A stretch of DNA of 64,000 nt, from positions 58,138,946 through 58,202,945 of the forward strand of contig NC_092646.1 of the NCBI RefSeq assembly GCF_039555335.1, written 5' to 3'. Positions 1-57,739 of this stretch are shown here, piece after piece. Below the pieces are notes generated by a model. It was not told where the DNA came from, did no database searches, and saw only the letters and a list, made by a program, of their open reading frames with translations. The number at the start of each line of letters is the position of its first letter. Positions within the stretch are counted from its first letter, which is position 1. The position numbers and the translations under genes were made by a program. Origin of the DNA: Amphiura filiformis. Lineage: Eukaryota.

Positions 1-1378
1 GCATTTGTCTCGCATCAGTGGTCAATGCAATCAAATTTCATGAACCTGCGACAATCTATGGCGATTTGACCCCGGAAGACCCCAAAATTACCTTGACATT
101 TTTTGTCTTGCATAGTTGGTCGTTCTCACCAAATTTCATGAACCTGTGACAATCTATAGCAATTTGACTCCGGATGACCCCAACATGACCATGGCATTTT
201 GGGTCTCGCATCAGTGGGCAATGCCACCAAATTTCATGAACCTACGACAATATATGGCGATTTGACCCGGATGACCCGGATGGCCCCATAATGACCTTGG
301 CATTTTTAGTCTCGTATCTGTGGTCGATCGCACCAAATTTCATGAACCTGCAACAATTTATGGCAATTTGACCCCAGATGACTCCAAAATAATCTTGGCA
401 TTTTTTGGTCTCACATCACTGGTGAATGCCACCAAATTTCATTAACCTGTTACAATCTATAGCAATTTGACTCCAGATGACCTCAAAATTACCTTGGCAT
501 TTTGGGTCTCGCATCAAAATGGTCAATCCCACCAAATGTCATAAACCTACGACAATCTATGGTGATTTGACCCCGGATGACCCCAACATGACCTTGATAT
601 TTTTATCTTGCATTGTTGATCGTTCTCACCAAATTTCATGAACCTGCGAGAACAAAATGGCGTTTTGACCTCGGATAAATCCGAATGACCCAAAAATGAT
701 CTTAGCAATTTTGGTCTTGTATCGGCGATCAATCCCACCAAATTTCATGAACCTGCGACAAGCTATGGCGATTGGCCCCCGGATGACCCCGTATGGCCCC
801 AAAATGACCTTGATATTTTTATCTTGCATTGTTGATCGTTCTCACCAAATTTCATGAACCTGCGAGAACAAAATGGCGTTTTGACCTCGGATAAATCCGA
901 ATGACCCAAAAATGATCTTAGCAATTTTGGTCTTGTATCGGCGATCAATCCCACCAAATTTCATGAACCTGCGACAAGCTATGGCGATTGGCCCCGTTTG
1001 ACCCCGTATGGCCCCAAAATGACCTTGATATTTTTATCTTGCATTGTTGATCGTTCTCACCAAATTTCATGAACCTGCGAGAACATAATGGCGTTTTGAC
1101 CTCGGATAAATCCGAATGGCCCAAAAATGATCTTAGCAATTTTGGTCTTGTATCGGCGATCAATCCCACCAAATTTCATGAACCTGCGACAAGCTATGGC
1201 GATTGGCCCCCGGATGACCCCGTATGGCCCCAAAATGACCTTGACATTTTTGACTTGCATCGTTGGTCGTTCTCACCAAATGTCATAAACCTACGACAAT
1301 CTATGGCGATATGACCCCAAAATGATCTCGACATTTTTTGTCTGGCATCGTTGGTCGTTCCCACCAAATTTCATGTGT
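1..1378. repeat. Tandem satellite array with ~108-110-bp monomers (core caccaaatttcatgaacctgcgacaatctatggcgatttgacccc), organised at ~600-1260 as a 216-bp higher-order repeat of two alternating monomer subtypes. It decays into unique sequence near 1380.
   Basis: The monomer core recurs every ~108 bp from position 30 onward. Three near-identical 216-bp units start at ~733, 950 and 1164. Near-identical ORF-track peptides at 547-1260 are translations of this repeat. Confidence 0.9.
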
Positions 1379-2286
1379 TCATGGCAACCTATTGGGAGTA
1401 AAAGAGAAGACCCCAGAACGGGGTCCCCGGGGTAGTAATCCATTAACTAATGCAAACTTGGTCTGGCTCGGACCAAGCCGCACCTACCCACCAAGTTTGA
1501 GGAACATGCGACCCCCAATCTCAGAGAAAATAGCCTGACAAACAGACAGACACCCCGACGTACTGACAGATACCCCGACAGACTTGGCGTATATTATTTA
1601 TATAGATAACTTTTTATGGTGAAAATGCAAACATCATTTAATATTTTTAAGTTAAGAAAGAATGCCTACTACTTTGCTAGGAGTAGGACTAACATGACTA
1701 AAAATTATCCAAAACAGGTTTGATACTGCACGTTGGAAACAGTAAATTAATGACTAAATCGGTAAATTTTATGGCGGCGATACCGACATTTTTTCGGTTG
1801 CAATACATTGGTATACTTTTATTTCAAATTTCTAAACAATTAACATGTGAAATTAATTATTGTTTGCTCAAAAATAGACCTAAATCACAAAAATAATGCA
1901 TTTCCTCTCAAATATTATATTCCATTGTTTTCTATCTTGCAAATGGTGATTATTTGTGATATTATCAAGTATAAATTATTATTTTACCACTTATCTTGGT
2001 TTGATGAATACCAAATACATTAGGGCATATGGTTCCAACTAATCGCATTTGCGTGTGCTGATCGTACTCGTGATACTACTAATGACAAAATCACACCGAT
2101 TTAATTGATTGACAAATATTACCATCTTGTTTTTGAAAAATTAGGGGAAAATTTATTGTATTTTATTGTTTTTATTACGCACGCAATGCAAGAAACGTGT
2201 TGCACACAGCTTCAGCCCTATTCATTTTCCGATTTTACGTTTTGCCCTTTTATTGTTGTTTTACACTTGTTCAATTTACAATTCAC

Positions 2287-6355: not shown

Positions 6356-6406
6356 TCCACAAAAGATATCTTGCTCCTTACAAGTCTTATTTTGGACTTG
6401 TTTCAG

Positions 6407-6701
6407 TCCGCCTTTTTGGTCTTTCAAGTGGTACCAAATACGGCGAAGTGGAAGTATACTACAATGGAGCTTGGGGTGCAGTGTGTGCTGACAACTGGGA
6501 TAAAAACGATGCAACTGTAGCATGTCGTCAACTTGGATTCTTTCCAGCGCCATTTGTGAGTTCTTATGGACAAGTAACTGGACCATTATCGATGACCAAT
6601 GTAATGTGTACTGGTACAGAAAAAAGTTTAGATGAATGCAGTCATGAAGGTGAACCTCAAACCTGTGCGTCAGCACGCCATGCATATATAGATTGCAATT
6701 A
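6407..6701 (+). CDS. Single-exon SRCR (scavenger receptor cysteine-rich) domain. The peptide is (I/V)RLFGLSSGTKYGEVEVYYNGAWGAVCADNWDKNDATVACRQLGFFPAPFVSSYGQVTGPLSMTNVMCTGTEKSLDECSHEGEPQTCASARHAYIDCN.
   Basis: The acceptor is tttggacttgtttcag|TC at 6401-6406 and the donor is TTA|GTAAGT at 6702-6707. The peptide has the canonical SRCR pattern (VRL..G, VEV..NG.WG.VC.D.WD..DA.VVCRQLG, C.G.E.SL..C). Entry phase is 1 and exit phase is 2. Confidence 0.85.
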
Positions 6702-6714
6702 GTAAGTACTAAAT

Positions 6715-7032
6715 TCGACGTCGATGTGACGTAATAAATCGGATTAACTACCGTAACAATGGATGAATACAATTTTGAATAGATCGCTCTCCTTCACTAT
6801 CTATGCTCTGCACTACAAGCAGATTGCACTAATCACCTGTGTATGTCTGTAAACATAGATTGAATACAATACTAATCTTACTGGTGCGAGTGATCAGCCT
6901 TTCTTTGACATCTAGGCCTATGGTTCAATACATAGGTACCGCGTTAACGTTGTAGTGCTGAGCGTTCTATTCAAAAATTGTATTCATCCATTGCTGTGGT
7001 AGTTAATCCAATTATAACGTCACTTCGACGGC
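6715..7032. mobile_element. Fold-back MITE, family C. Its long TIRs are cgacgtcgatgtgacgtaataaatcggattaactaccgtaacaatggatgaatacaattttgaataga and the reverse complement. It sits 13 bp downstream of the SRCR exon donor.
   Basis: The near-perfect inverted arms of ~70 bp can be read directly. Five further copies are listed below. Confidence 0.75.
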
Positions 7033-7371
7033 GAATAACGAGTTACTCTAAGATGTACATTCACTCCGTAATTTGCATGGCAAAATGACTCCTCCGTATT
7101 CTCCTTCGCAGCCAGTTTGGTTCTACTCCCTCGGAATCAAATTGTTCGCGGAGGAGACTATCCTCCATTGAGTGATAAGCCTGTCACATGTTATGGGCAG
7201 TGAACTCTTGTTTTGGTCACTACTGAGTTGAGCTTTAAAAAAGGCATTTCTAGTACAATTATTGCTCTCCATACACAGATGAATGCAAATATAACGCAAA
7301 ATATTCCACCTTGCATTTTGTGTTATATAGGCCTACACATAATTTGTAGAGTATCATGAGAATGGGCTGAT

Positions 7372-8940: not shown

Positions 8941-9198
8941 CTATTCGCCGTAGAAGCGATGATGTATCAGGATTAACTACCATAGCAATAGGTTCAAACA
9001 ATTTTTGAACATATCGCACTGCACTAGTACGTACATGCGGTACCTCTGCATTGGAACCATAGATGTCAAATAACAGGGATAAAGTACAAATGTGATGAGT
9101 GCAACCTGCTTGTAGTGCAGGGCGATATATTCAAAAATTGTATTTATCTATTGCTATGGTAGTTAATCCGATTATTACGTACCTTCAACGGTGAATAG
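8941..9198. mobile_element. Fold-back MITE, family C, copy 2.
   Basis: Arms ctattcgccgtagaagcgatgatgtatcaggattaactaccatagcaatagg and cctattgctatggtagttaatccgattattacgtaccttcaacggtgaatag. Confidence 0.75.
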
Positions 9199-9774
9199 GG
9201 GGTTAATCCAAATGATCGATGTCGATCATACATTTTCTCGTATTGATAACGCTTTCAATACATCAATGTTATTTTGACCCACAGATGCTGAGGGAAGAGC
9301 CAGTTACAAAACCAGTAATATTGCATTCTTTATTTTGATTTGTACCCTTAGTAAATTAAAGACCCGATGAAGCCAAGCAAATGTAAAGCTAGTTACAAAG
9401 CTTACCCGGTACCCCCTCCAACCCCACCCATGTAACGGAGCCATGCAGAAGTGGTCAAAACAACATTGATGTTTTTGTACGAGTTTTTGAGAAGCGTGAT
9501 AGCGATGTCTTTTAGGACATTCCCTCCCTCCGCAAGGCTTCGAGAAGTGTTATAGGGACCCTCCCTCAATGCATTTTCAAAACCCTCCTTCCCTCCGTAA
9601 TAGCGACGTACCATCGCAAGGCTTCGTCAACCTTTTAGTTTGTTCCCTTGGGTCATAAAAGCTGTAGAAATAAACATATCGGTGTTTCACGAGTAGTAGA
9701 CTTTAATCGAGTTATATAAATTATTCATGAGCTCCTCATGAATATTAATGAGGTGGATGTGGCTACACCGCTGC

Positions 9775-10473
9775 TTTGACCCCTATATGACCTTTGACCT
9801 ATATGACCCTATGTGACCCCACATCACACCCTTATGTGACCCTACATGACCTTTGGCCCCTACATGACCTTTAATCCGGATATGACCTTTGACCCTATAT
9901 AACCTCTTATACGGAAGTGATATTTGAAACCTATGTGACATTTAACCCATGTGACTTTTGACCCCTTTGTGACAGTGACACTATATGACCTCTGACCCAT
10001 ACATGACCTATGACCCAGAAGTGACTTTTTACTCCATACATGACCTTTGACCACTACGTGACCTTAGACACAGGAGTGACCTTTGAATCGGAAGTGATCT
10101 CTGACCCGGAAGTGACCTTTGACCCCTAAGTTACCTCTACATGGTCTTTGAACCCTATGTGACTCTACATGACCTTTCACCCCTATGTGACCTTTGATCC
10201 GCACGCGACCTTTATATCCTCTGACCTCTAACCTCTGAACCTCTAACCTCTGATCTTTGAAACCTTTTTGTGACCTTTGACCCTACGTGACTTTTGACCC
10301 ATATGTGACAATGACACTATAAGACCTCCGACCGCTGCATAACCTCTGACCCGGAAGTGACTTTAGACTCCCTAACCTTTGACCACTATGCCCCAGAAGT
10401 GACATTTTTACCAGGAAGTAATCTTTGACCTGGAAGTGACCTTTGACCCCTACGTAGCCTTTGACTCCTATTT
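9775..10473 (+). repeat. Minisatellite of ~35 degenerate 18-22-bp units built on TGACCTTTGACCC. Each unit is a DR1 arrangement of nuclear-receptor half sites (AGGTCA-n1-AGGTCA on the opposite strand).
   Basis: tgacctttgacc(c) or a one-mismatch variant recurs at 9791, 9884, 10037, 10114, 10160, 10272, 10434, 10441 and elsewhere. Confidence 0.85.
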
Positions 10474-10611
10474 GACATTGTAGAACGTTCGAGTGAATAA
10501 ATGTTGTGAGTTGCATTCGCCCCCAAACTTGCCCAAAACACCTGTTACACCCCGAAATAAAATAGCGATCAGAAAAGCGCCCACTATGCACGTGCAACTT
10601 CACTTCCTGGT

Positions 10612-10785
10612 TCACTTGAAGGTCAAAGGTCACATAGGGTCGAAGATCTCTTCCCGGTCAGAGGCCATAGGGGTCAATCATTTATTGGTCAAAGGTCACG
10701 TGGGGGTCACAGGTCATGTAAGGGTCACATATGGATCTAAGGTCAGGTAGGGGTCAAATGCTACTTCCGGGTCAAAGGTCACGCA
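10612..10785 (-). repeat. Shorter inverted arm of the same minisatellite (gggtcaaaggtca units). With 9775-10473 it forms a large fold-back structure; the flanks (cctcatgaatattaatgagg at 9735 and cctcataatattaattc at 10785) are also similar.
   Basis: ggtcaaaggtcac occurs six or more times in inverted orientation relative to the long arm. Confidence 0.8.
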
Positions 10786-11958
10786 CACCTCATAATATTA
10801 ATTCTCGTGAATATGCTAATTAACCATGCTCACCTCATAACGCGATGAAAGTAAAAGGGAAAGCCAGTTTCACCGATGTAGGAACTCGAGCAGTCACCGC
10901 AGGGGAATGGCCGCCTCCGCGCGCTTTTTGTTGAGGGAAATGTTTGTCCTCAGGGTGAACGAGCATACTGTGGATGATACGATGTGGCTTCAAGAAGAAA
11001 AACCGTGTCATCATTTCGCTCTGAAGTAAGTAAGGTAAGTAACTGAGGGGTGGATCCGTTTTCTTTGACTTTTTTAATTGACCAATCTGTGTGTCTGCAA
11101 CTTCGCGGATATTATTCTCCTCTTTATGTTTGTCCGCTTCCTCGGTTACCAACCATGCCAACTCGTCACTCCTATCTAACGCCGTTCTGACAACTCCCAG
11201 CTAAGGGGTGGTGGGTAGTGGCGTAGCCAGCTTTTTTTTTTGGTCGGGGGGGGGGCAAAATAAAATTTCGGGGGCACAGACGAAAAATAATTACAGTTGC
11301 GGTATAGATACAAAGTTTCACTTGTACAAAGAATTTGAGACCATTTTCGTTGAAATCGGAGCACTTTTAGTTGATAACCCTGCGTGGTCTGAAAAAAACC
11401 TGACCATATCGGTTTTGACATTTATGCTTATATTATATAAACTCAAAATATGTGTCGCAGAAAGGTCAAACTAGACTTTTTTCTGAATCCTTGAGATGAG
11501 AGGAAAACTTTGCTACGGCTGTTTGCAAAATTTGAGCAAGTTTGAAATTTGATCCCTGTGTTGATCTGTGATTGAACCAGATACTCGCTTTAATTTGTTT
11601 ATTTACTTCTAATTAACGTTTCCAGATCAGAAAATATGTGCAGAAAAATATAAGCTATGTGATTTTATGTTTCCTGTGTTGCAAAAAGAATGTATAGAGA
11701 AAGTCAGCTTTCGAAAATGTGTGCGGCACATCCCTTACAAAAATAATTGAAGAACACACCCCCGCCGGTCACGTATGATCAGTCCCTCTTATGAAAAAGT
11801 GGTTAATGTTATGACGAAAAAAAATATAATATTCATATCACTTCGTCATACGTCTACTTAATATTGAGTCGTGTGGATTATGATACAGCCCGTCTGTCAC
11901 CAGAATCCACAGAGGAGAGCGAAAAACAGAGGCTATACCACCAAAGTCTCCGCATCAC

Positions 11959-12764: not shown

Positions 12765-14297
12765 CAGTCATGGACAAAAGTTTGGAATATTTTTATTTTT
12801 TTTATCAAATGCAGTTTTCAATCATTGTTCTGGAGTAGTGCTCAGTTGAATTAATTTGAAAGTTATGAATGTCATTTGATGTTTACATCACACAGTTTGT
12901 CAATTAAACAAAGAATTTCCTGAGGAAGCGCATTACAATGGAAGGATCACACAATCGCAACACTTTTTGGCGGTCTCTTTGTATCACAAAATGAAATTAA
13001 AGACAATATAAAACTTTATTGTTTAAACAAAAACTTCCACTGTCTCTGTAATTTGTTCCGGTAAGTCTCTTGCTTGAGAAAACACATCTCAATATTTGGT
13101 GTGTCCACCCCTTGTCAGCTCAAGATCATTTAGCCAACGTGACATTCCCTCGTCCAGGTTTGCCAAGGTCCCTTGTGGAATATCTCGCCAGCAAGCAATA
13201 AAGGCGTGTCTACGTTCCTGCAGGGTGATTGGTTGGTTGTCCATGTTACCTATCCTGCGGGATACTTCTGCCCATAAGTTCTCTATTGGACTCATATCCG
13301 GGCTCAAAGCCGAGCAGTCCAGATGTTCTACATTCTCATTTTCAAGGAATTCCCTCACGCGTAGGGTTCTGTGCGCCATGGTGTTGGATCACGAAATTGT
13401 TCCCGAAGTCTCTTCTTGCAAACGGAAGCATAACTGTATCAAGAACATAGAGGTATTGGTTCTGGTTCACGTGTCCTTCTAGCATGTTGAGTTGTGATTT
13501 CGACCTACTCTGAAATGTTCCCCATACTGTGACTCCACCACCATCTCCCTGGACTCTAGGAAGGATACAATCCGCAAGCAGGGCTTGACCAACCTGTCTT
13601 CGGACCTTGAATCGGTCATCTTGTCTGTAAAGGAGGAACCGGGCCTCTTCACTGAAGATCACATTACGTCAGTGGCCTACTGTCAAATCCCTATGTCTCT
13701 GTGACCAAAGCAAGCGCGCATGCCGATGTCTTTGCAGAAGTATCGGCTTTCTTATTGGTCGTTTTGCGCGAAAACCTGCACTAACCAGTCTATTGTTCAC
13801 AAGTTTCCTGGTAACAGGAGCTTTTATGGACCTCAGCCATTCTGTTCGTAGCCGACTTGCCGACTCCGTGCGGCCATTGTGGCAAAGTCTCAGGAGAGAT
13901 CGGTCTTCCCTGGCGGTTGTCTTTCGGGGCCGACCTGACCTTGGTCTAGGTGTAGTAGTTCCGGTCTCGTGACGTCTCTTCAAAATTTTAGAGACTGCAT
14001 CTTATGTAATTCCTAAAGCGACACCTATATCCTTCTGTTTGTAGCCGCGATTACGTAAGTCGGTGACTTTGGCGCATAAATAATTATGTGCTCGACTCGT
14101 ACCTATGATCAGAAATATCGTATACAACAGACAGATGCAACAAAATAAAGCTGCACTAGGTATTGTGTGATATGGAATGATACCTTAGCAGACACCCGTG
14201 ATCCATTTTGCATGTCTTATGGGTCATTGATGGTAAGAAATCTGCACTTAAAAACAGGGTTATGCAAAAAAATATTCCAAGCTTTTGTCCATGACTG
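12765..14297 (-). mobile_element. Tc1/mariner-family (Tc1-like) DNA transposon, 1533 bp. It has 25-bp TIRs (cagtcatggacaaaagtttggaata / tattccaagcttttgtccatgactg) and is flanked by TA on both sides.
   Basis: TIRs at 12765-12789 and 14273-14297. TA dinucleotides at 12763-64 and 14298-99. Transposase-homologous ORF fragments lie internally on the minus strand. Confidence 0.85.
13089..13983 (-). pseudogene. Tc1-like transposase remnant. The N-terminal HTH region (RSGRPRKTTAREDR...), the DDE catalytic region (...VWGTFQ...FVIQHHGAQNP...) and the C-terminus fall in three different frames, so the gene is disrupted by frameshifts.
   Basis: ORF-track pieces 13669-13983, 13342-13662 and 13089-13379 each match successive parts of the Tc1 / Sleeping Beauty-type transposase pattern. 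Confidence 0.8.
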
Positions 14298-20195: not shown

Positions 20196-21120
20196 CCCAT
20201 AGTATGGGTTCAAGTGGAACAAAAAATAGTGTATGTCCATTGCTAGCTATGGTAATTAATCATGTTAGTGTTTACATCACTACTTCGGTGAAGACAAGAG
20301 AAGTGTGCCTTCTCTACCAACGCCTGTGATATAACAGGTGCAAGCGAAACAAAATTGAATGACCAGAATAGTTTCCTTTGTCAGATGAATTGATTGAAGT
20401 TTTTGAAGACACTCTATTCTTGATGGGACAATAGATTCAAATATGGAATAATTATTATTCGTCATCTTTTTTTTTTTATTGAAAAAACTGCAATTGTGGC
20501 AACAGAACAATATTTATTTTGATTTCATTTCAAGTAGAAACAAAATCGTGCTTAAGCCAAAAACGCACCCTACCTCAAGAATTGGGATGGCACAAAGGTG
20601 CAACATAGGTTTTTATTGCAAAGACGAGGACAGACAAGTGGTTACAACACATCTGTCTAACCGTGGGTTTCGCTATTATTTAGAATAAATGCTTTTACTA
20701 GTTTCTATAAAACCACAAAATTACTAAAAAAACTATAAAAAAACTAAAAAAAAAAAAAAAAAAAAAAAACGCACCTAAAATTTAAAGTAGAAAGGTAGAT
20801 TTGAAGAAAGATAAAAAGAACATGTAAAAAAGTTAAAATTAAACGAGAATGAAAAAACGGAACCGGTGACCGGACCATGCTCTCTTCAGCATGTCTTCAG
20901 TTCCAAAGTCTGACGCTCTATCAATTGAGCTATACGATCCTGATATACGAAACAGTCGTTATTATGTCAATACAATTGATTGGTGTTACAACATACTTAG
21001 ATGGAATGCATAGCCACCCAGTGCCAGTATATATTTGCTCAAACTCCAAATACAACAAGCAACCAATTTTATTGAGGGCGTTTCTTAGGTATATCCTTGT
21101 AGACGGGGTTTTACGGTATT

Positions 21121-41228: not shown

Positions 41229-42433
41229 AATCATCTGAGTAACCAATCAAAGTAGCACTATTCAAAATTACTGTAGCGATTCGTCAGGTTCAAATATTGC
41301 AGGTTGGTTTTATCAAACCAATAGATTAGTGGTGAAATGGTGGTAAAAAACTCACCAAATGACGTTTCATCCATCTAGATCAGGCGGATTTCTTCAGAGC
41401 TGCTTAAAAAACTTTTTAACCAATTAACAAAAACGATGGTTACACTCAAAAGTAAAACATAATCCGATATAAATTTTCCGTTGAACAAACTTTAACAAAA
41501 ACGTCACACAATGATACCAACTTTATTACATGTATTCCTGTTTAATAGCGACTACAAACACAGATTGAGAATTTGGATAGGCCTATAATTTCACACGGAA
41601 GGACGGAAAGATGGACAGCATCGTTTTTACAGTCTTACTCCATTCCATAGCGTAAGACAAAAAATATGGGGATTGATAGGACCATCCTATCAGAAGGTCA
41701 AAATACCTTAAACAATGATTTAACCAAAATTGTCTAAATTTTTTCTTGCAAAAATAATTCAAGTAAAGAATAATTTGCACTGTCTAGGATGCTTCCCTAC
41801 ATAAGTAATATTGCAAAATAGGTTAGGCCCAATAGAGTTTGTTGGCGTAGTGCACGTTAGAATATGACCGTTGCTAGGTCAACTGGCTCACGCTTTCTTT
41901 GTTATGAACCACTGATCGAATAACCATGTAATGGCATTACGGTATATCCCATTGAAACAATAGAGGGCTCCACCTAGGTTTCATTATCATTGAGGTATAG
42001 GACTTTTTATTTTTTCGGAGAAGAGCAAGTAGGGCAACTACTTGATTATATTTCTACACGTTCGTACTACATACTCTGAAAATTTTAGAAAATTCGCACG
42101 AGTCCGTTTTTTTTAAATCACAATTTTGTTCCTAAAATGGGGGTTATAGCGCCCTAAAATAAAATGGACTCGTGCGAATTTCCTCAAATTTTGCAAATGA
42201 TGTAGATCTGGAATTTAACATCACTTGCATTACATTCCAGATGTTAAAACATCTGGAATGTAATGCAAGTGATGTCATTGCTGCTCTTCTAAATTCATTT
42301 TTAAAATGTCCGCCCCAGACCAAGGTGCTCCAACAAAATCCACAAAGGCCCATCAGAAAAGTACAAAATTTCAAAATTCTATCGAGAACCTATTAATGCA
42401 TGCATACACATCCATTAAGATTCCATACAGGCA

Positions 42434-42624
42434 GAATTGGGATATTCCATGTGAACTCTATACTCCCTATGGAAGACATGATCTTAATCTTCCACACTGG
42501 GAGCATGGATTTCAAATGGGGTTACCTGAATGGCTGACTCTATTTGAAATTCATACTCCCAGTGTGGAAGATTCAGGTCATGTCTTCCATATAGCGGGTG
42601 TATGGACTTCAACTGGAATAAGCT
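42434..42624. mobile_element. Palindromic MITE, family D. The consensus is ggctattccagttgaaatccatacaccccctatggaagacatgaccttaatcttccacacagggggtgtagatttcaaatggagtcacccattcaggtaaccccatttgaaattcacactccctgtgtggaagattaaggtcatgtcttccatagggggtgtatggatttcaactggaatagcc. This is copy D1.
   Basis: Matches the family consensus. ORF 42306-42650 is a read-through of this repeat. Confidence 0.8.
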
Positions 42625-42681
42625 ATTTGAACTGGTTAGTGACCACATAGACATTATATTTGTCAGGTGATGCAAAAATAG

Positions 42682-54030: not shown

Positions 54031-55845
54031 CTAACCTTTGTACTTGTGTGTCTTCTTTTGTTTATTAGTTTGTTTGTTTGGATGAATGAAAATGAGTTAT
54101 TGTTTTATAATCATTCAATCTCATGAAATATGTAGCTAAAATGCAGACTTTTACTTATGAACATCTACAAGTTCAAGTGCGAAGGTCAACTCATCGAAAT
54201 TTTTCCCAACTACATTGTTGGTATCAGCACAAATTTAAGGTCAACATAATTGCACATCAAACTTAGGTCAAAGGTCAGTTTGGTAATTTGCATATATTTC
54301 GGTTAAACAAATGAAACAAGGACCTCCGTATCTATTCAGCGGCTTTCAGTCGCAAGTAAAGCTGACCAAAAATGAGCATGATGCATATGAAGTTGCCAAT
54401 ATTGAAGAGAATGCTTTCACTTCTCAGCATGCTGAAATTGCGTGCAAAATGTGTCCAATGTTTCTGATGCTAAAGCAGACCTAGTACTAAGTCATCAGCC
54501 ACTTGGCAATATAAATACATAAGGGCACATAGGTCGAAGGTCATTAGTTGACAGAAATATACCAGGTCAAAGGTCATTAGGTGACAGAAATATGGTCAAA
54601 GTTTATTTCATTAAGATTCATAACATACAACCTCTGTTGAATAACAAAATGTTATTTTTGTGAAATTTCCATTTTCTTCAGAAAAATAATTTGAGGATCA
54701 AAGTGTCAGGTTTTTGGGTAAAAATATGTTGCTGTTTTTATTTTCCAAACTGAGCATTTCTGCCCAAATTTGAACTCACAGATGGATTTGTCAAAACGTT
54801 GCAATGACAGTTTGTTACGCTTCCAAACTGATGAAACAATAAGACAGAATTGTCTGTCAAAATGTAATATATAAACATGTGTGTCCATCTACATGTAACT
54901 CTTTAAAATGTAAAATACACTCTTTTATGGATTGTCTATATGCAATGATCATGCCAATGGAGTAACGCTGTACTCTTTTTGAGAGTGAATTGCTGTCTTG
55001 TTTACTCTTTCCAAAGTGAAATTTACTCAAATGTCATTCCATCAGGCAATTGTTTTATTAAAGTGAAATTATTTCTTTTCACTATTTTACATTTAGTGAG
55101 TAGCACATACCGTATTTAAATCAAATAGTCGCCCCCCCCCTCAAATAAACGCCCCCACCACTTTTTTCAACCAAGATGTTTCAAAAATGCCGATATTTCC
55201 ATGCTATCTTGTGTAGTAAGCTTACCAAGTTGCGCACATGGTCCATAATAGCGTCAATAATTGGCGAAAATCTGGATCAGAAACCCGGAAGTGAGCCAGA
55301 AGTCAGTGTTTCTAGTTCATAGTTCGTCATTTTAGCGTGTGTTTTTAGTTTACCTAATGATTTTAACGGGAATTATTGTTCTAAAATTGACCTTGAATAA
55401 ACGCCCCCCCCCCCCTTGGGAAAATGTAACGCCCCGGGGCGTTTATTTGACGAAATACGGTAACTTATTTGTGGACATTGCTTTTAGAAAAGAAATCTAT
55501 TTCAGTTGGTTTCCTAAATCTATATTTGTAATATCAACTATATATTGTACACTCTTATCAAGGCATCATCAGGGCACATCACACTCGTTTTATGTCTAAA
55601 TTGGTTCTAGTTTATGGCAAAATAACGTACATTACAAAGCACATTTGGCTATTAATTTTCAACCTCTCTTATGTACTTGTGTCACCCTCATTGCCAAATC
55701 AAGCAATTATCGCAGGGCGAGTGAAGAAGTCCTATCTGTGATAGCTGCCATATAGACATTTGATAATTTCTGCATTTTGTATTGTACACATCAGAAAATA
55801 TGACACCTGGCAGCTATTTGAGATTTCAACACTAACCCTCCAATT

Positions 55846-56120
55846 GGCTGTTCCATATAAAATCCACACTCCCCCTGTGGAAGATTTTGGAAATATCTTC
55901 CACAGGGGGAGTATGAATTTCAAATGGAATGAGCACATTAGGCAGCTCCATTTAAATTTCATACACCCTCTGAGAAAGATTCAACCTGAATCTTCCCGAG
56001 GGAGAGGAGTTTCAAATGGAGCTACTAATGTGTTAATTCCATTTGATATTCATACTCCCTCTGTGGAAGATATTTCCAAAATCTTCCACAGGGGGAGTAT
56101 GGATTTCAACTTGAATAGCC
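55846..56120. mobile_element. Family-D MITE, copy D8, with ~1.5 units.
   Basis: Consensus match. ORF 55760-56128 is a read-through. Confidence 0.75.
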
Positions 56121-56277
56121 CAATATGACCAGTGATGATTAGAAAGCAGCAGTGACGATGGGCATCCCCGGAAAATTCCAACCACATAACTTAAGAAATG
56201 GGCTATTCCAGTTGATTGCCAAATTCAAATCACTGGAAAGACACAGTACACTGCTCGTTATGTGTAAATTTAAGAAA

Positions 56278-56413: not shown

Positions 56414-56600
56414 GGGCTAGTCCAGTTGAAACTATACACCCCCTATGGAAGACAAGACCTTAATCTCCCAGACAGGGGTTGTATACTTCAAATGGAGTCG
56501 CCCATTCAGGTAACTCACTTTGACATACATAATCCCTGTAGGAATGAATATAAGGGCAAACCTTCCACAGGGGGTGTATGGATTTCAAATGTAAGAGCAC
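56414..56600. mobile_element. Family-D MITE, copy D10.
   Basis: Consensus match. Confidence 0.75.
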
Positions 56601-57739
56601 AATTTGCCCCTTCTTTTTCACTGCTAGTATTCTGCTCAACCCCTGCATTCTTTTCATCCAAAAGATTACACTACTACAAACCAAGGAACAAGCTATGTAT
56701 TGGTATTTAGAAGATTTGGAACTCTTTAAAATTTAGAAAAAGTACTGTGAAGAAATGTACTACTAATTTTTTAGTGTAGGAATGACATAAAATTGAAAAG
56801 TGAATAATCTTGGATGCAAAAGGAGTACTGACATTGTTGACTATATTTTTAATTGAAAACGTGATGTACTTTTCTACTAAAAGCTGTGACAGTTAATAAA
56901 ATTTACCAAAGATGATATTCTCAAAGATTACCGACATAACATTGCACCATAAGTAACGCTGTGGCAAATTGGCTACCTTGGTTTGTCGCTCATATCAAAC
57001 GATAATTTGCATCTTTAGAAATAGCATGTAGAAGTGCTTGCGTGTATTTTTGGCACAACACGTTACATATAGAATGCAAATGACCACATATATTGAATCA
57101 AAAGTTTGCTGGGTGCTTAGCAAAATAGCCAGGTACATTAAATGGCCTCCATGAGTGACACACATAAACGAGGGAGTCGGTACTCTTTGATTCTACCTCC
57201 ATGAGTGACACACAAAAATGGGGGAGTCTGTACTCTTTTGATTCTACCTCATTGAGATTTAGAGAATTGGGAAATGGCAAGTGCTGTGAGAGCAAAAATA
57301 GCTTAATATATCTTCAATGTTCTGAAAATAGTATTTGAGCCTATATATATTTTGGAATAAAATGGTATCAAATTAATCTACATGAATATATACAGGGACA
57401 ATTTCTATGAAAGTGAGCTTGTTTGAGTTTTGAAAGAGGCCGTCAAATATAATAATTTAGACCAATGAAAGATGGTTATATTATCCAAAATAGAAGCAAC
57501 TTTGAAAAAAGATTTTATTCAAACTATTCAATTCAGTACTGTCACTCTTTTGTTGAAAATTCCAAGCATAAATATAAAATGCTGACCACCAAGCCCCTTC
57601 TTCATAAAAAGTTTGACTATATGAATTAAATCTGTGATAGTACTGTCTTTTTGATGAGTACTGTCATTTTGAAAAGACTTATGAAAGTATTTGATATTAA
57701 TAAACTTATGAAACAAGCCTAAAGATTGAGAAGGCCATT

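Follow-up and report, generated by a model that had tools for sequence, protein, structure and literature searches.

Position and anatomy of the array

The repeat studied here lies in intergenic DNA, ~3 kb past the stop codon of a small SRCR gene, within a 64-kb stretch of Amphiura filiformis DNA that was analysed as a whole (the window; all positions refer to it). Brittle-star genomes contain ~59% repeats and have experienced bursts of DNA transposons (PMC11310086). The first-pass annotation guessed at an intron or gene desert, which was roughly right: past the SRCR gene, the array has MITEs and a Tc1 remnant as neighbours (Table 1). The window contains three separate TGACC-rich repeats, including arrays at positions 1-1375 and near 54.3-54.6 kb, while the 18-bp unit described below forms a single array in it.

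Table 1. Features of the repeat and its surroundings, in window positions
Feature	Position	Strand	Remarks
SRCR terminal exon	ends 6702		
Hairpin MITE copies (two)	6737-7051; 8941-9211		
Small palindrome TCATGAGCTCCTCATGA	9725-9741		before and overlapping the left flank motif
Left outer flank motif CCTCATGAATATTAATGAGG, palindrome	9734-9753	.	sole match in window
Left arm, degenerate 18-bp minisatellite	9774-10478	+	TRF and unit phasing
Higher-order copy A, block of ~12 units	9918-10145	+	79% identity to B
Higher-order copy B, tandem duplicate of A	10251-10480	+	abuts core; offset ~336 bp
Non-repetitive middle domain (119 bp)	10479-10597	.	no other copy in window
Right arm, inverted 18-bp unit	10598-10790	-	inverted pairs I1-I25; 8 recognisable cores
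Right outer flank motif CCTCATAATATTAATTC	10788-10804	.	read directly in sequence
Tc1 transposase remnant	13.1-14.0 kb		

The left arm is a tandem array of 39 phased 18-bp units with the consensus TGACCTTTGACCC followed by a 5-nt spacer, either CTAYR or GGAAG; when read on the minus strand it corresponds to GGGTCAAAGGTCA. TRF reported a period of 18 with 16.4 copies and 66% matches for positions 9774-10069, with overlapping rows reaching position 10448 and a match level of 66-71% across the array rows, and the units were phased by wrap-around alignment to TGACCTTTGACCCCTATG. Both procedures showed the unit to be 18 bp long, and not 13 bp as initially described. The 13-mer core could be recognised with up to four mismatches in 30 of the 39 units, and was exact in four. 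The unit is laid out as TGACCTT, TGACCCC and TATG in succession, that is, the heptamer TGACCYY is repeated inside it, and the spacing between half-sites alternates between 7 (DR1) and 11 (DR5) along the array.

The right arm contains about 8-10 units, which on the plus strand read as GGTCAAAGGTCA. The first-pass annotation had described an array of ~35 units directly followed by an inverted arm; the tandem array and the inversion were confirmed, although details of the unit, the arm and the motif were not, and a unique 119-bp core separates the two arms. The longest inverted pair between the arms spans 88 nt with 73% complementarity, the best short pairs reaching 81-95%, and the single-strand fold of positions 10040-10800 had a z value of -7.5 relative to shuffled sequences. 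Classical satellite DNA was considered and rejected: the array extends over only 0.7 kb, its units match poorly, at the level reported by TRF, and there is no second such array in the 64 kb.

Stops interrupted all six frames across the array, and no protein homologue was found for the longest ORF, of 116 aa, which spans the core and the array. A synthetic consensus based on the three open hexapeptide frames (TFDPYV, HRGQRS, IGVKGH) yielded 7890 word-sharing candidates, none of them significant, composition correction having probably removed them, while a HMMER search with a 64-aa array ORF against 1.84 billion representatives returned just three matches, all spurious and to unrelated repeat proteins. 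A protein-coding repeat was discarded, given the frames broken by stops and the lack of homologues. Neither an Rfam E-value scan nor ARAGORN rendered an RNA family or tRNA match in the region; elsewhere in the window, one borderline tRNA-like Rfam match was seen at 20867-20939. A search of the literature for the motif in a 'repeat' or 'satellite' context retrieved primers and receptor oligonucleotides only.

Divergence within the array and its outer ends

Copies A and B, of ~230 bp each, were 79% identical over 218 aligned columns. Identity rose to 82% when 9941-10038 was compared with 10277-10374, which marks an internal higher-order duplication of 336 bp. This duplication was absent from the first-pass annotation. 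The Jukes-Cantor distance between the two copies was 0.25, equivalent to ~65 My at the neutral rate of Amphiura filiformis (PMC11310086). The right arm was 66-70% identical to blocks A and B; the idea that it could be the mirror image of block B was rejected, the 66% identity observed being no better than that of any two stretches of the repeat. Overall, the array is ~30% decayed and about three quarters of its units have no intact DR1. The region is an old, degenerate array that is not homogenised.

The sequence CCTCAT(G)AATATTAAT is present at both outer ends. The right flank motif matches the left one at 16 of 17 positions, with one gap; the local alignment score was 24, as compared to a mean of 14.5 for shuffled sequences, and was equalled in 2 of 1000 shuffles. 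Both of the similar flanks originally reported near 9735 and 10785 exist. The left motif matches its own opposite strand with two mismatches and, since the 17-nt common motif is palindromic, an inverted and a direct relationship look the same in it. The inverted similarity of the longer flanks was not significant, being equalled by 24 of 500 shuffles and by 20 of 300 random pieces of the window. Candidate pairs of ends were scanned systematically for a target-site duplication and none was found, only 2-bp coincidences; such a duplication may possibly have eroded, the element being old. Neither the flanks nor the core recurred in the 64-kb window or among 120 metagenome loci (see below), which leaves the mobility of the repeat putative. 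A P-element-like terminus was also considered by comparing CATGAATATTAATGAGGTGG with the P-element inverted repeat, and was rejected: the right end is not its mirror and there is no 8-bp duplication.

DR1 motifs and TGACC arrays in other repeats

The strict DR1 form AGGTCANAGGTCA (AGGTCA-N-AGGTCA) was found at two sites, and the form RGGTCANRGGTCA (RGGTCA-N-RGGTCA) at ten, seven of them in the left arm and three, on the plus strand, in the right arm. Allowing one mismatch to RGGTCANRGGTCA increased the number to 20 sites, and allowing two to 31; the left arm accounted for 16 of the sites with at most one mismatch, all of them on the minus strand. The 'dozens' of perfect or near-perfect AGGTCA-n1-AGGTCA motifs claimed previously were thus an overstatement, although the enrichment itself is real: the 20 sites with at most one mismatch, in 1.1 kb, compare to 0.007 expected from shuffles, so that, in the comparison with shuffled sequences that had been suggested, the density of DR1-like sites was far beyond chance. 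The resemblance to DR1 arises because TGACC recurs 7 bp apart in the unit, and would best be read as incidental. Among the three readings initially proposed, that of a satellite whose unit merely happens to contain the motif fits best, since a DR1 follows automatically from TGACCYY and arrays of this kind occur on many unrelated flanks; what is present is, however, a short degenerate minisatellite rather than a classical satellite.

Metagenome contigs with two adjacent TGACCTTTGACC units numbered at least 120, against an expectation of ~0.01; soil appears to be the origin of some of these metagenomes. A scan of viral contigs rendered 0 matches, and a 20-kb eukaryotic piece reached via an SRCR homologue was devoid of TGACCTTTGACC. 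When 120 of the metagenome arrays were grouped according to their flanks, 49 loci shared one flank set, nine shared another, and 49 were singletons. Two of the loci, L035 (positions 1-280) and L088 (200-560), are clean hairpin MITEs whose arms consist of GGTCA/TGACC repeats, including GGTCAAAGGTCA. Like the repeat in the window, they are fold-back structures with arms made of direct repeats of the TGACC half-site, although they show no sequence homology to it beyond the motif. Their arms, unlike those of the window repeat, are nearly perfect and mutually abutting, and the spacing of their half-sites is a mixture of DR0, DR1 and DR2. The order of the arms differs as well, being TGACC-core-GGTCA in the window and GGTCA-TGACC in the two MITEs, a difference that was counted against a fold-back transposon. 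The presence of these arrays in at least 120 contigs belonging to many unrelated flank families, together with the two hairpin MITEs, indicates that TGACC direct-repeat arrays are a common cargo of interspersed repeats. That a single metagenome scan found TGACCTTTGACC arrays on several unrelated repeat families is the wider point; if their over-representation outlasts a permuted-motif control (such as TCAGCTTTCAGC, its gaps unchanged), the question would be why mobile DNA multiplies the TGACC half-site.

Possible origin of the repeat

The region is probably, and we say this with moderate confidence, an old non-coding repeat of the fold-back type, most likely a decayed non-autonomous fold-back or MITE-like DNA transposon with arms made of short subterminal repeats. 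Long inverted arms surround a middle domain, and tandem repeats lie inside the arms. A fold-back transposable element had already been proposed in the first-pass annotation, and its architecture (inverted tandem-repeat arms, unique middle, common outer motif) holds, while a target-site duplication and a similarity between the longer flanks did not emerge; the strongly unequal lengths of the arms (705 and 193 bp) also count against this interpretation. A TGACCYY heptamer would have been duplicated and extended to form the 18-bp unit, which could then have been amplified through unequal exchange or slippage. Later, ~12 units may have been duplicated as one block, generating copies A and B, and the array would since have accumulated changes over tens of millions of years, with nothing to homogenise it. 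In a fold-back element that was still active, the repeats would have acted as a reiterated transposase-binding or hairpin-forming sequence, rather than as host hormone response elements.

A rather unlikely alternative, although the most serious one, is that no transposon was involved: slippage and unequal exchange would have expanded a TGACC-based unit where it stands, and an inverted duplication would then have copied a segment with its short flank, perhaps when replication or repair switched templates, with decay to follow. An origin of this kind agrees with the failure to find a target-site duplication, a significant long terminal inverted repeat or any recurrence of the flanks or core, with the fact that the array clearly grew by local duplication of blocks (A and B), and with the 49 singletons among the 120 metagenome arrays, whose unrelated flanks imply that such arrays can also originate or survive where no repeat family is recognisable. 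The common outer motif and the unique middle, on the other hand, form a fold-back layout, most metagenome arrays with recognisable flanks lie on multi-copy interspersed families (the groups of 49 and 9 loci), including hairpin MITEs, and the surroundings of the locus are rich in transposon remnants. Inverted duplications are also a known long-read artefact, and a chimeric fold-back read could in principle have produced one here; this is, however, extremely improbable, since artefactual arms are nearly identical and abutting, while those observed are 66-73% alike, differ in length and have a unique core between them. The arms are divergent enough to effectively refute an artefact, and their divergence, together with that of the units and of copies A and B, rules out a recent event as well. 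It is also very doubtful that the inverted arms, if transcribed, would generate a long hairpin RNA that could be processed into endo-siRNA or piRNA directed against related repeats. The significant fold-back potential and the abundance of TGACC-bearing repeats that might serve as targets, such as the two other arrays located above, would be in line with this, but the arms are only ~70% complementary, which would limit the duplex to short stretches, and no RNA family match was obtained.

The array might instead work as an enhancer, silencer or sink for nuclear receptors, its DR1 and DR5 sites being bound by HNF4, RXR, COUP-TF or TR2/4-type receptors with effects on the SRCR gene or on chromatin, a role that we regard as improbable. 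The density of exact and near-exact RGGTCA-N-RGGTCA sites would favour it, as would the consensus GGGGTCAAAGGTCA, which equals the textbook DR1. The units were, in addition, more alike at half-site positions (mean ~0.83) than at position 7 and in the spacer (0.65), and copies A and B differed at 10 of 105 half-site positions as compared to 13 of 59 elsewhere (Fisher p = 0.035, a comparison biased by spacer subtypes, spacer CpGs and phasing). A contrast between half-sites and spacer is, however, expected in any case, given that there are two ancestral spacer subtypes, that the phasing is anchored on the core and that all CpGs lie in the spacer, and a transposase-binding core would give an equal contrast in conservation. 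Moreover, the array was not homogenised, with few DR1 left intact, and the finding of 12-mer arrays in at least 120 unrelated contigs, soil metagenomes apparently included, indicates that the motif can arise without receptor selection. A role in receptor binding, suggested solely by the match to the motif, is unsupported. Primate Alu repeats carry DR2 and HNF4 sites, with half-sites of the AGGTCA type. In the cNRE, a 32-bp cluster of hexads, as here, half-sites of this type were delivered or multiplied by repetitive DNA, and clusters of the cNRE type, possibly derived from viruses or transposons, can be real regulatory modules (PMC10995137). For the Alu sites and the cNRE, with 2-4 hexads per element, receptor binding or reporter activity has been demonstrated, while the ~40 degenerate units found here are known from their sequence. 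Even less probable is a broader proposal, namely that TGACC arrays (DR0/DR1/DR5) are a recurrent, convergent cargo of unrelated transposons of marine invertebrates, recruiting HNF4, COUP-TF, RXR or GCNF-type receptors and thereby making the activity of the element tissue- or germline-specific; the locus would then be a decayed instance, perhaps with receptor binding retained. As it stands, the locus matters little: it adds one to the decayed minisatellites that derive from repeats and lie between genes among transposons, and searches for nuclear-receptor motifs in such genomes should mask it.

With regard to the preferred fold-back or MITE-like origin, fold-back elements whose long inverted arms contain tandem repeats are well established, a sea-urchin example being cited among them (PMC4079207), which indicates that the kind exists in echinoderms. 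Drosophila FB, Galileo, Tetris and the sea-urchin element resemble the repeat described here in their inverted arms made of tandem repeats, non-coding middle, asymmetric copy number between arms and lack of an ORF (PMC4079207). In contrast, these elements have long and clearly homologous terminal domains, target-site duplications of 7-10 bp and many copies, whereas the terminal similarity detected here is limited to 17 nt, with no duplication seen. Their unit sequences are unrelated to the present 18-bp unit. The arrays of bivalve DTC84 and of oyster Helentrons are reportedly central, in one orientation and composed of monomers of ~150-170 bp; the array in the window differs in its 18-bp unit and in being split into inverted arms. 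The bivalve tandem-repeat MITEs (DTC84, PMC3879986) and the oyster non-autonomous Helentron elements (PMC7492417) share with it the presence of short tandem arrays carried as cargo by non-autonomous elements of marine invertebrates, and these bivalve arrays are dispersed in euchromatin.

Architecture of the array and its inverted arm

TRF detected a period-18 array (66–71% matches) running from position 9774 to ~10450, and wrap-around alignment to TGACCTTTGACCCCTATG phased 39 units over 9774–10478. The 13-mer TGACCTTTGACCC was found in 30 units when up to four mismatches were allowed, and was exact in four. The unit is itself internally repetitive (TGACCTT, TGACCCC, TATG), so that the spacing of the TGACC half-sites alternates between 7 and 11 bp (DR1 and DR5). 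The spacer, 5 nt in length, is either CTAYR or GGAAG, and the second of these types generates ETS-like CCGGAAGTGA strings. The spacer (C)CGGAAGTGA, identical to the ETS-family core consensus, accounts for about one fifth of the array spacers (at 9905–10435 and 10600–10770), and GGAAGTGA occurs five times on the plus strand of the region and once in the rest of the window.

The array contains two higher-order copies, blocks A and B (79% identity over 218 columns), and is succeeded by a non-repetitive core and by the same unit in inverted orientation (see table). The tandem array, inverted arm and similar outer flanks described in the first-pass annotation were all recovered, the last of these as a 17-nt end motif whose match between the two ends was equalled in 2 of 1000 shuffles; the arm had been said to follow the array, and the inverted unit is indeed present, but the 119-bp core lies between the two. 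When the structure was folded as single-stranded DNA, it proved far better than shuffled sequences (z = –7.5). The sequence shows a heptamer-based 18-bp unit that was amplified in tandem, the subsequent duplication of a block of 12 units, an arm in inverted orientation, and a long, neutral-looking decay.

Features of the minisatellite region and of other repeats and exons in the window
Feature	Position	Strand	Description
98-bp-period satellite	1–1375		13 copies, 69% matches
216-bp higher-order form of the 98-bp satellite	568–1296		96% identical
GACAGAC-type microsatellite	~1540–1600		closes the unique tail after the satellite (within 1–1620)
SRCR exon	6394–6702	+	only clear exon in the window; closes at stop codon
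Hairpin MITE (~300 bp), two copies	6737–7051; 8941–9211		arms 80–90% complementary; copies ~80% alike
Outer motif CCTCAT(G)AATATTAAT	9734–9753; 10788–10804		common to both ends
Block A	9918–10145		higher-order copy within array
Block B	10251–10480		higher-order copy within array
Core	10479–10597		119 bp, non-repetitive, directly after array
Right arm	10598–10790	–	18-bp unit inverted; 8 recognisable cores
Tc1/mariner-type transposase remnant	13089–13983	–	frame-shifted; HTH_Tnp_Tc3_2, E = 1.3e-10
33-bp repeat (×1.9)	54531–54593		contains AGGTCGAAGGTCA and the AGGTCAAAGGTCA at 54564

DR1 content and divergence of the units

The strict form AGGTCA-N-AGGTCA occurs twice in the region and RGGTCA-N-RGGTCA ten times, seven in the left arm (minus strand) and three in the right (plus strand); allowing up to one or two mismatches, 20 and 31 DR1 sites were found, respectively. 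The region had been credited with dozens of perfect or near-perfect DR1 motifs, and a comparison with shuffled sequence had been proposed. The number of perfect or near-perfect sites was overstated, but the enrichment is real: shuffling the region yielded 0.007 sites at one mismatch or fewer, and the DR1 density is well above that expectation. About three in four units have lost an intact DR1.

The Jukes-Cantor distance between blocks A and B is 0.25, with 21% of sites different; under the neutral rate applied to A. filiformis (1.885 × 10–9 per site per year; PMC11310086), their duplication would roughly date to 65 My ago, since when the array has gone without homogenisation. Across units, uniformity was higher at the twelve hexamer positions (mean ∼0.83) than at position 7 and in the spacer (0.65), and the blocks differed at 10 of 105 half-site positions and 13 of 59 others (Fisher P = 0.035, a value confounded by spacer subtypes, CpGs and phasing). 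This uniformity is not read here as selection for receptor binding, since two ancestral spacer subtypes inflate the spacer differences, the CpGs of the unit all fall in the spacer, the phasing was anchored on the core, and the same contrast is also expected of a homogenised part of the unit or of a transposase-binding site.

TGACC arrays elsewhere and the origin of the region

When two adjacent units (TGACCTTTGACC, 5–7 nt, TGACCTTTGACC) were sought in JGI metagenome contigs, at least 120 contigs matched, against ∼0.01 expected in random sequence (our own estimate from 24 specified bases and ∼4 × 10^11 bases searched). The scan covered the TGACC motif only, so that the excess is relative to random sequence and not to other 12-mer arrays. 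Among the matches listed, the contigs came from several WGS projects and ∼30 JGI data sets, ten loci bore arrays in both orientations, and spacers, periods and flanks were highly diverse; after array masking, the flanks placed 49 loci in one set and 9 in another, with a few pairs, a triple and 49 singletons. Two loci, L035 (1–280; JAAUXW010181562.1) and L088 (200–560; JAAUXW010038319.1), are near-perfect, clean hairpin or fold-back MITEs, with ...GGTTGCGGGGTCATCCGGGGGTCAAGGTCAAAGGTCA... in one arm and ...TGACCTTTGACCTTGACCCCCGGATGACCCCGCAACC... in the opposite one. Since the loci include shared-flank families and such MITEs, interspersed repeats of other organisms commonly carry TGACC direct-repeat arrays, some of them fold-back. 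The flanks, core and other TGACC-rich repeats of the window matched none of the 120 loci listed. L035 and L088 have the outer sequence AGTAGTGTAGGGTGA... and arms of GGTCAAGGTCAAAGGTCA-type repeats that read as DR0/DR1 strings. Arrays of the TGACCTTTGAC type also lie on long JGI contigs (up to 48 kb; L025, L048, L055, L084 and L114), which, by accession prefix alone, may be of soil or rhizosphere origin and might be bacterial.

Fold-back elements are described as having a flanking domain, an outer tandem-repeat domain, a middle domain and target-site duplications of 8–10 bp, and a sea-urchin element is listed among the known examples (PMC4079207). The region resembles them in its inverted arms with tandem repeats inside, which supports the earlier suggestion of a fold-back transposable element; its terminal homology is weak and amounts to the 17-nt motif (the score of a longer flank alignment was equalled in 24 of 500 shuffles), and a target-site duplication, looked for at its ends, was not found. 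With two features present, a third weak and the duplication not found, we call the region fold-back-type and, on balance, probably transposon-derived. The main rival, in which a minisatellite arose entirely in place and was duplicated in inverted orientation, appears less likely. Other readings were rejected: a coding region, as stops break all six frames; a known RNA, as Rfam and ARAGORN scans gave no match in the region; an assembly artefact, as the arms are 66–73% alike, unequal in length and separated by unique sequence; and a classical satellite, as the array spans 0.7 kb, has heterogeneous units and is the sole one of its kind in 64 kb. A 116-aa ORF across the core had no homologue, and a HMMER scan of 1.84 billion representatives gave three matches, all to unrelated repeat proteins.

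If transposon-derived, the arms would represent the reiterated subterminal repeats of a non-autonomous DNA transposon that is now dead, and the DR1 resemblance would be a by-product, in agreement with the alternative first put forward that the satellite motif is only incidental. In living relatives, arm repeats of this sort would increase the number of transposase-binding sites and favour the formation of hairpins, as has been discussed for Galileo and Tetris (PMC4079207). The array is improbable as a functional regulatory element, and its suggested role as an enhancer or receptor-binding sink found no support. It is chemically plausible that the surviving predicted sites could be bound by receptors of the HNF4, RXR or COUP-TF type. 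It also seems improbable that several transposon families carry TGACC arrays as convergent cargo that recruits nuclear receptors.

Genomic setting and other TGACC-rich repeats

The window is eukaryotic, with 37.8% G+C and almost no long ORFs; the Amphiura genome is reported to have 36.67% G+C, 59.3% repeats and bursts of DNA transposons (PMC11310086). [quoted passage not shown] It is the predicted last exon of a gene for a small secreted protein with a single SRCR domain. One hairpin MITE copy immediately follows the stop codon of this gene, and the array lies ∼3 kb downstream. The translations of ORFs at 42306–42650, 55760–56128 and 56426–56710 have an HTPxVED...FH...G string in common (e.g. 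HTPSVEDSGHVFHIAGVW, HTPPVEDFGNIFHRGSMNFKWN), which suggests another dispersed repeat family; these ORFs had no Pfam match.

Each unit of the 98-bp satellite holds three TGACC half-sites (TTTGACCCCGGATGACCCCAAAATGACCTTG). Metagenome locus L045 (3990–4300) has the same layout, a TGACC array and then a tail with gacggacagacagatggacagacgg, and the repeat at 1–1620 therefore seems to be an interspersed repeat of a type that occurs widely. At 54140–54600, two perfect AGGTCAAAGGTCA (at 54265 and 54564) and one AGGTCGAAGGTCA were found; an octamer-like ATTTGCAT adjoins the 54265 site. Outside the 9.7–10.8-kb region, this is the only place in the window where an exact RGGTCANRGGTCA occurs.
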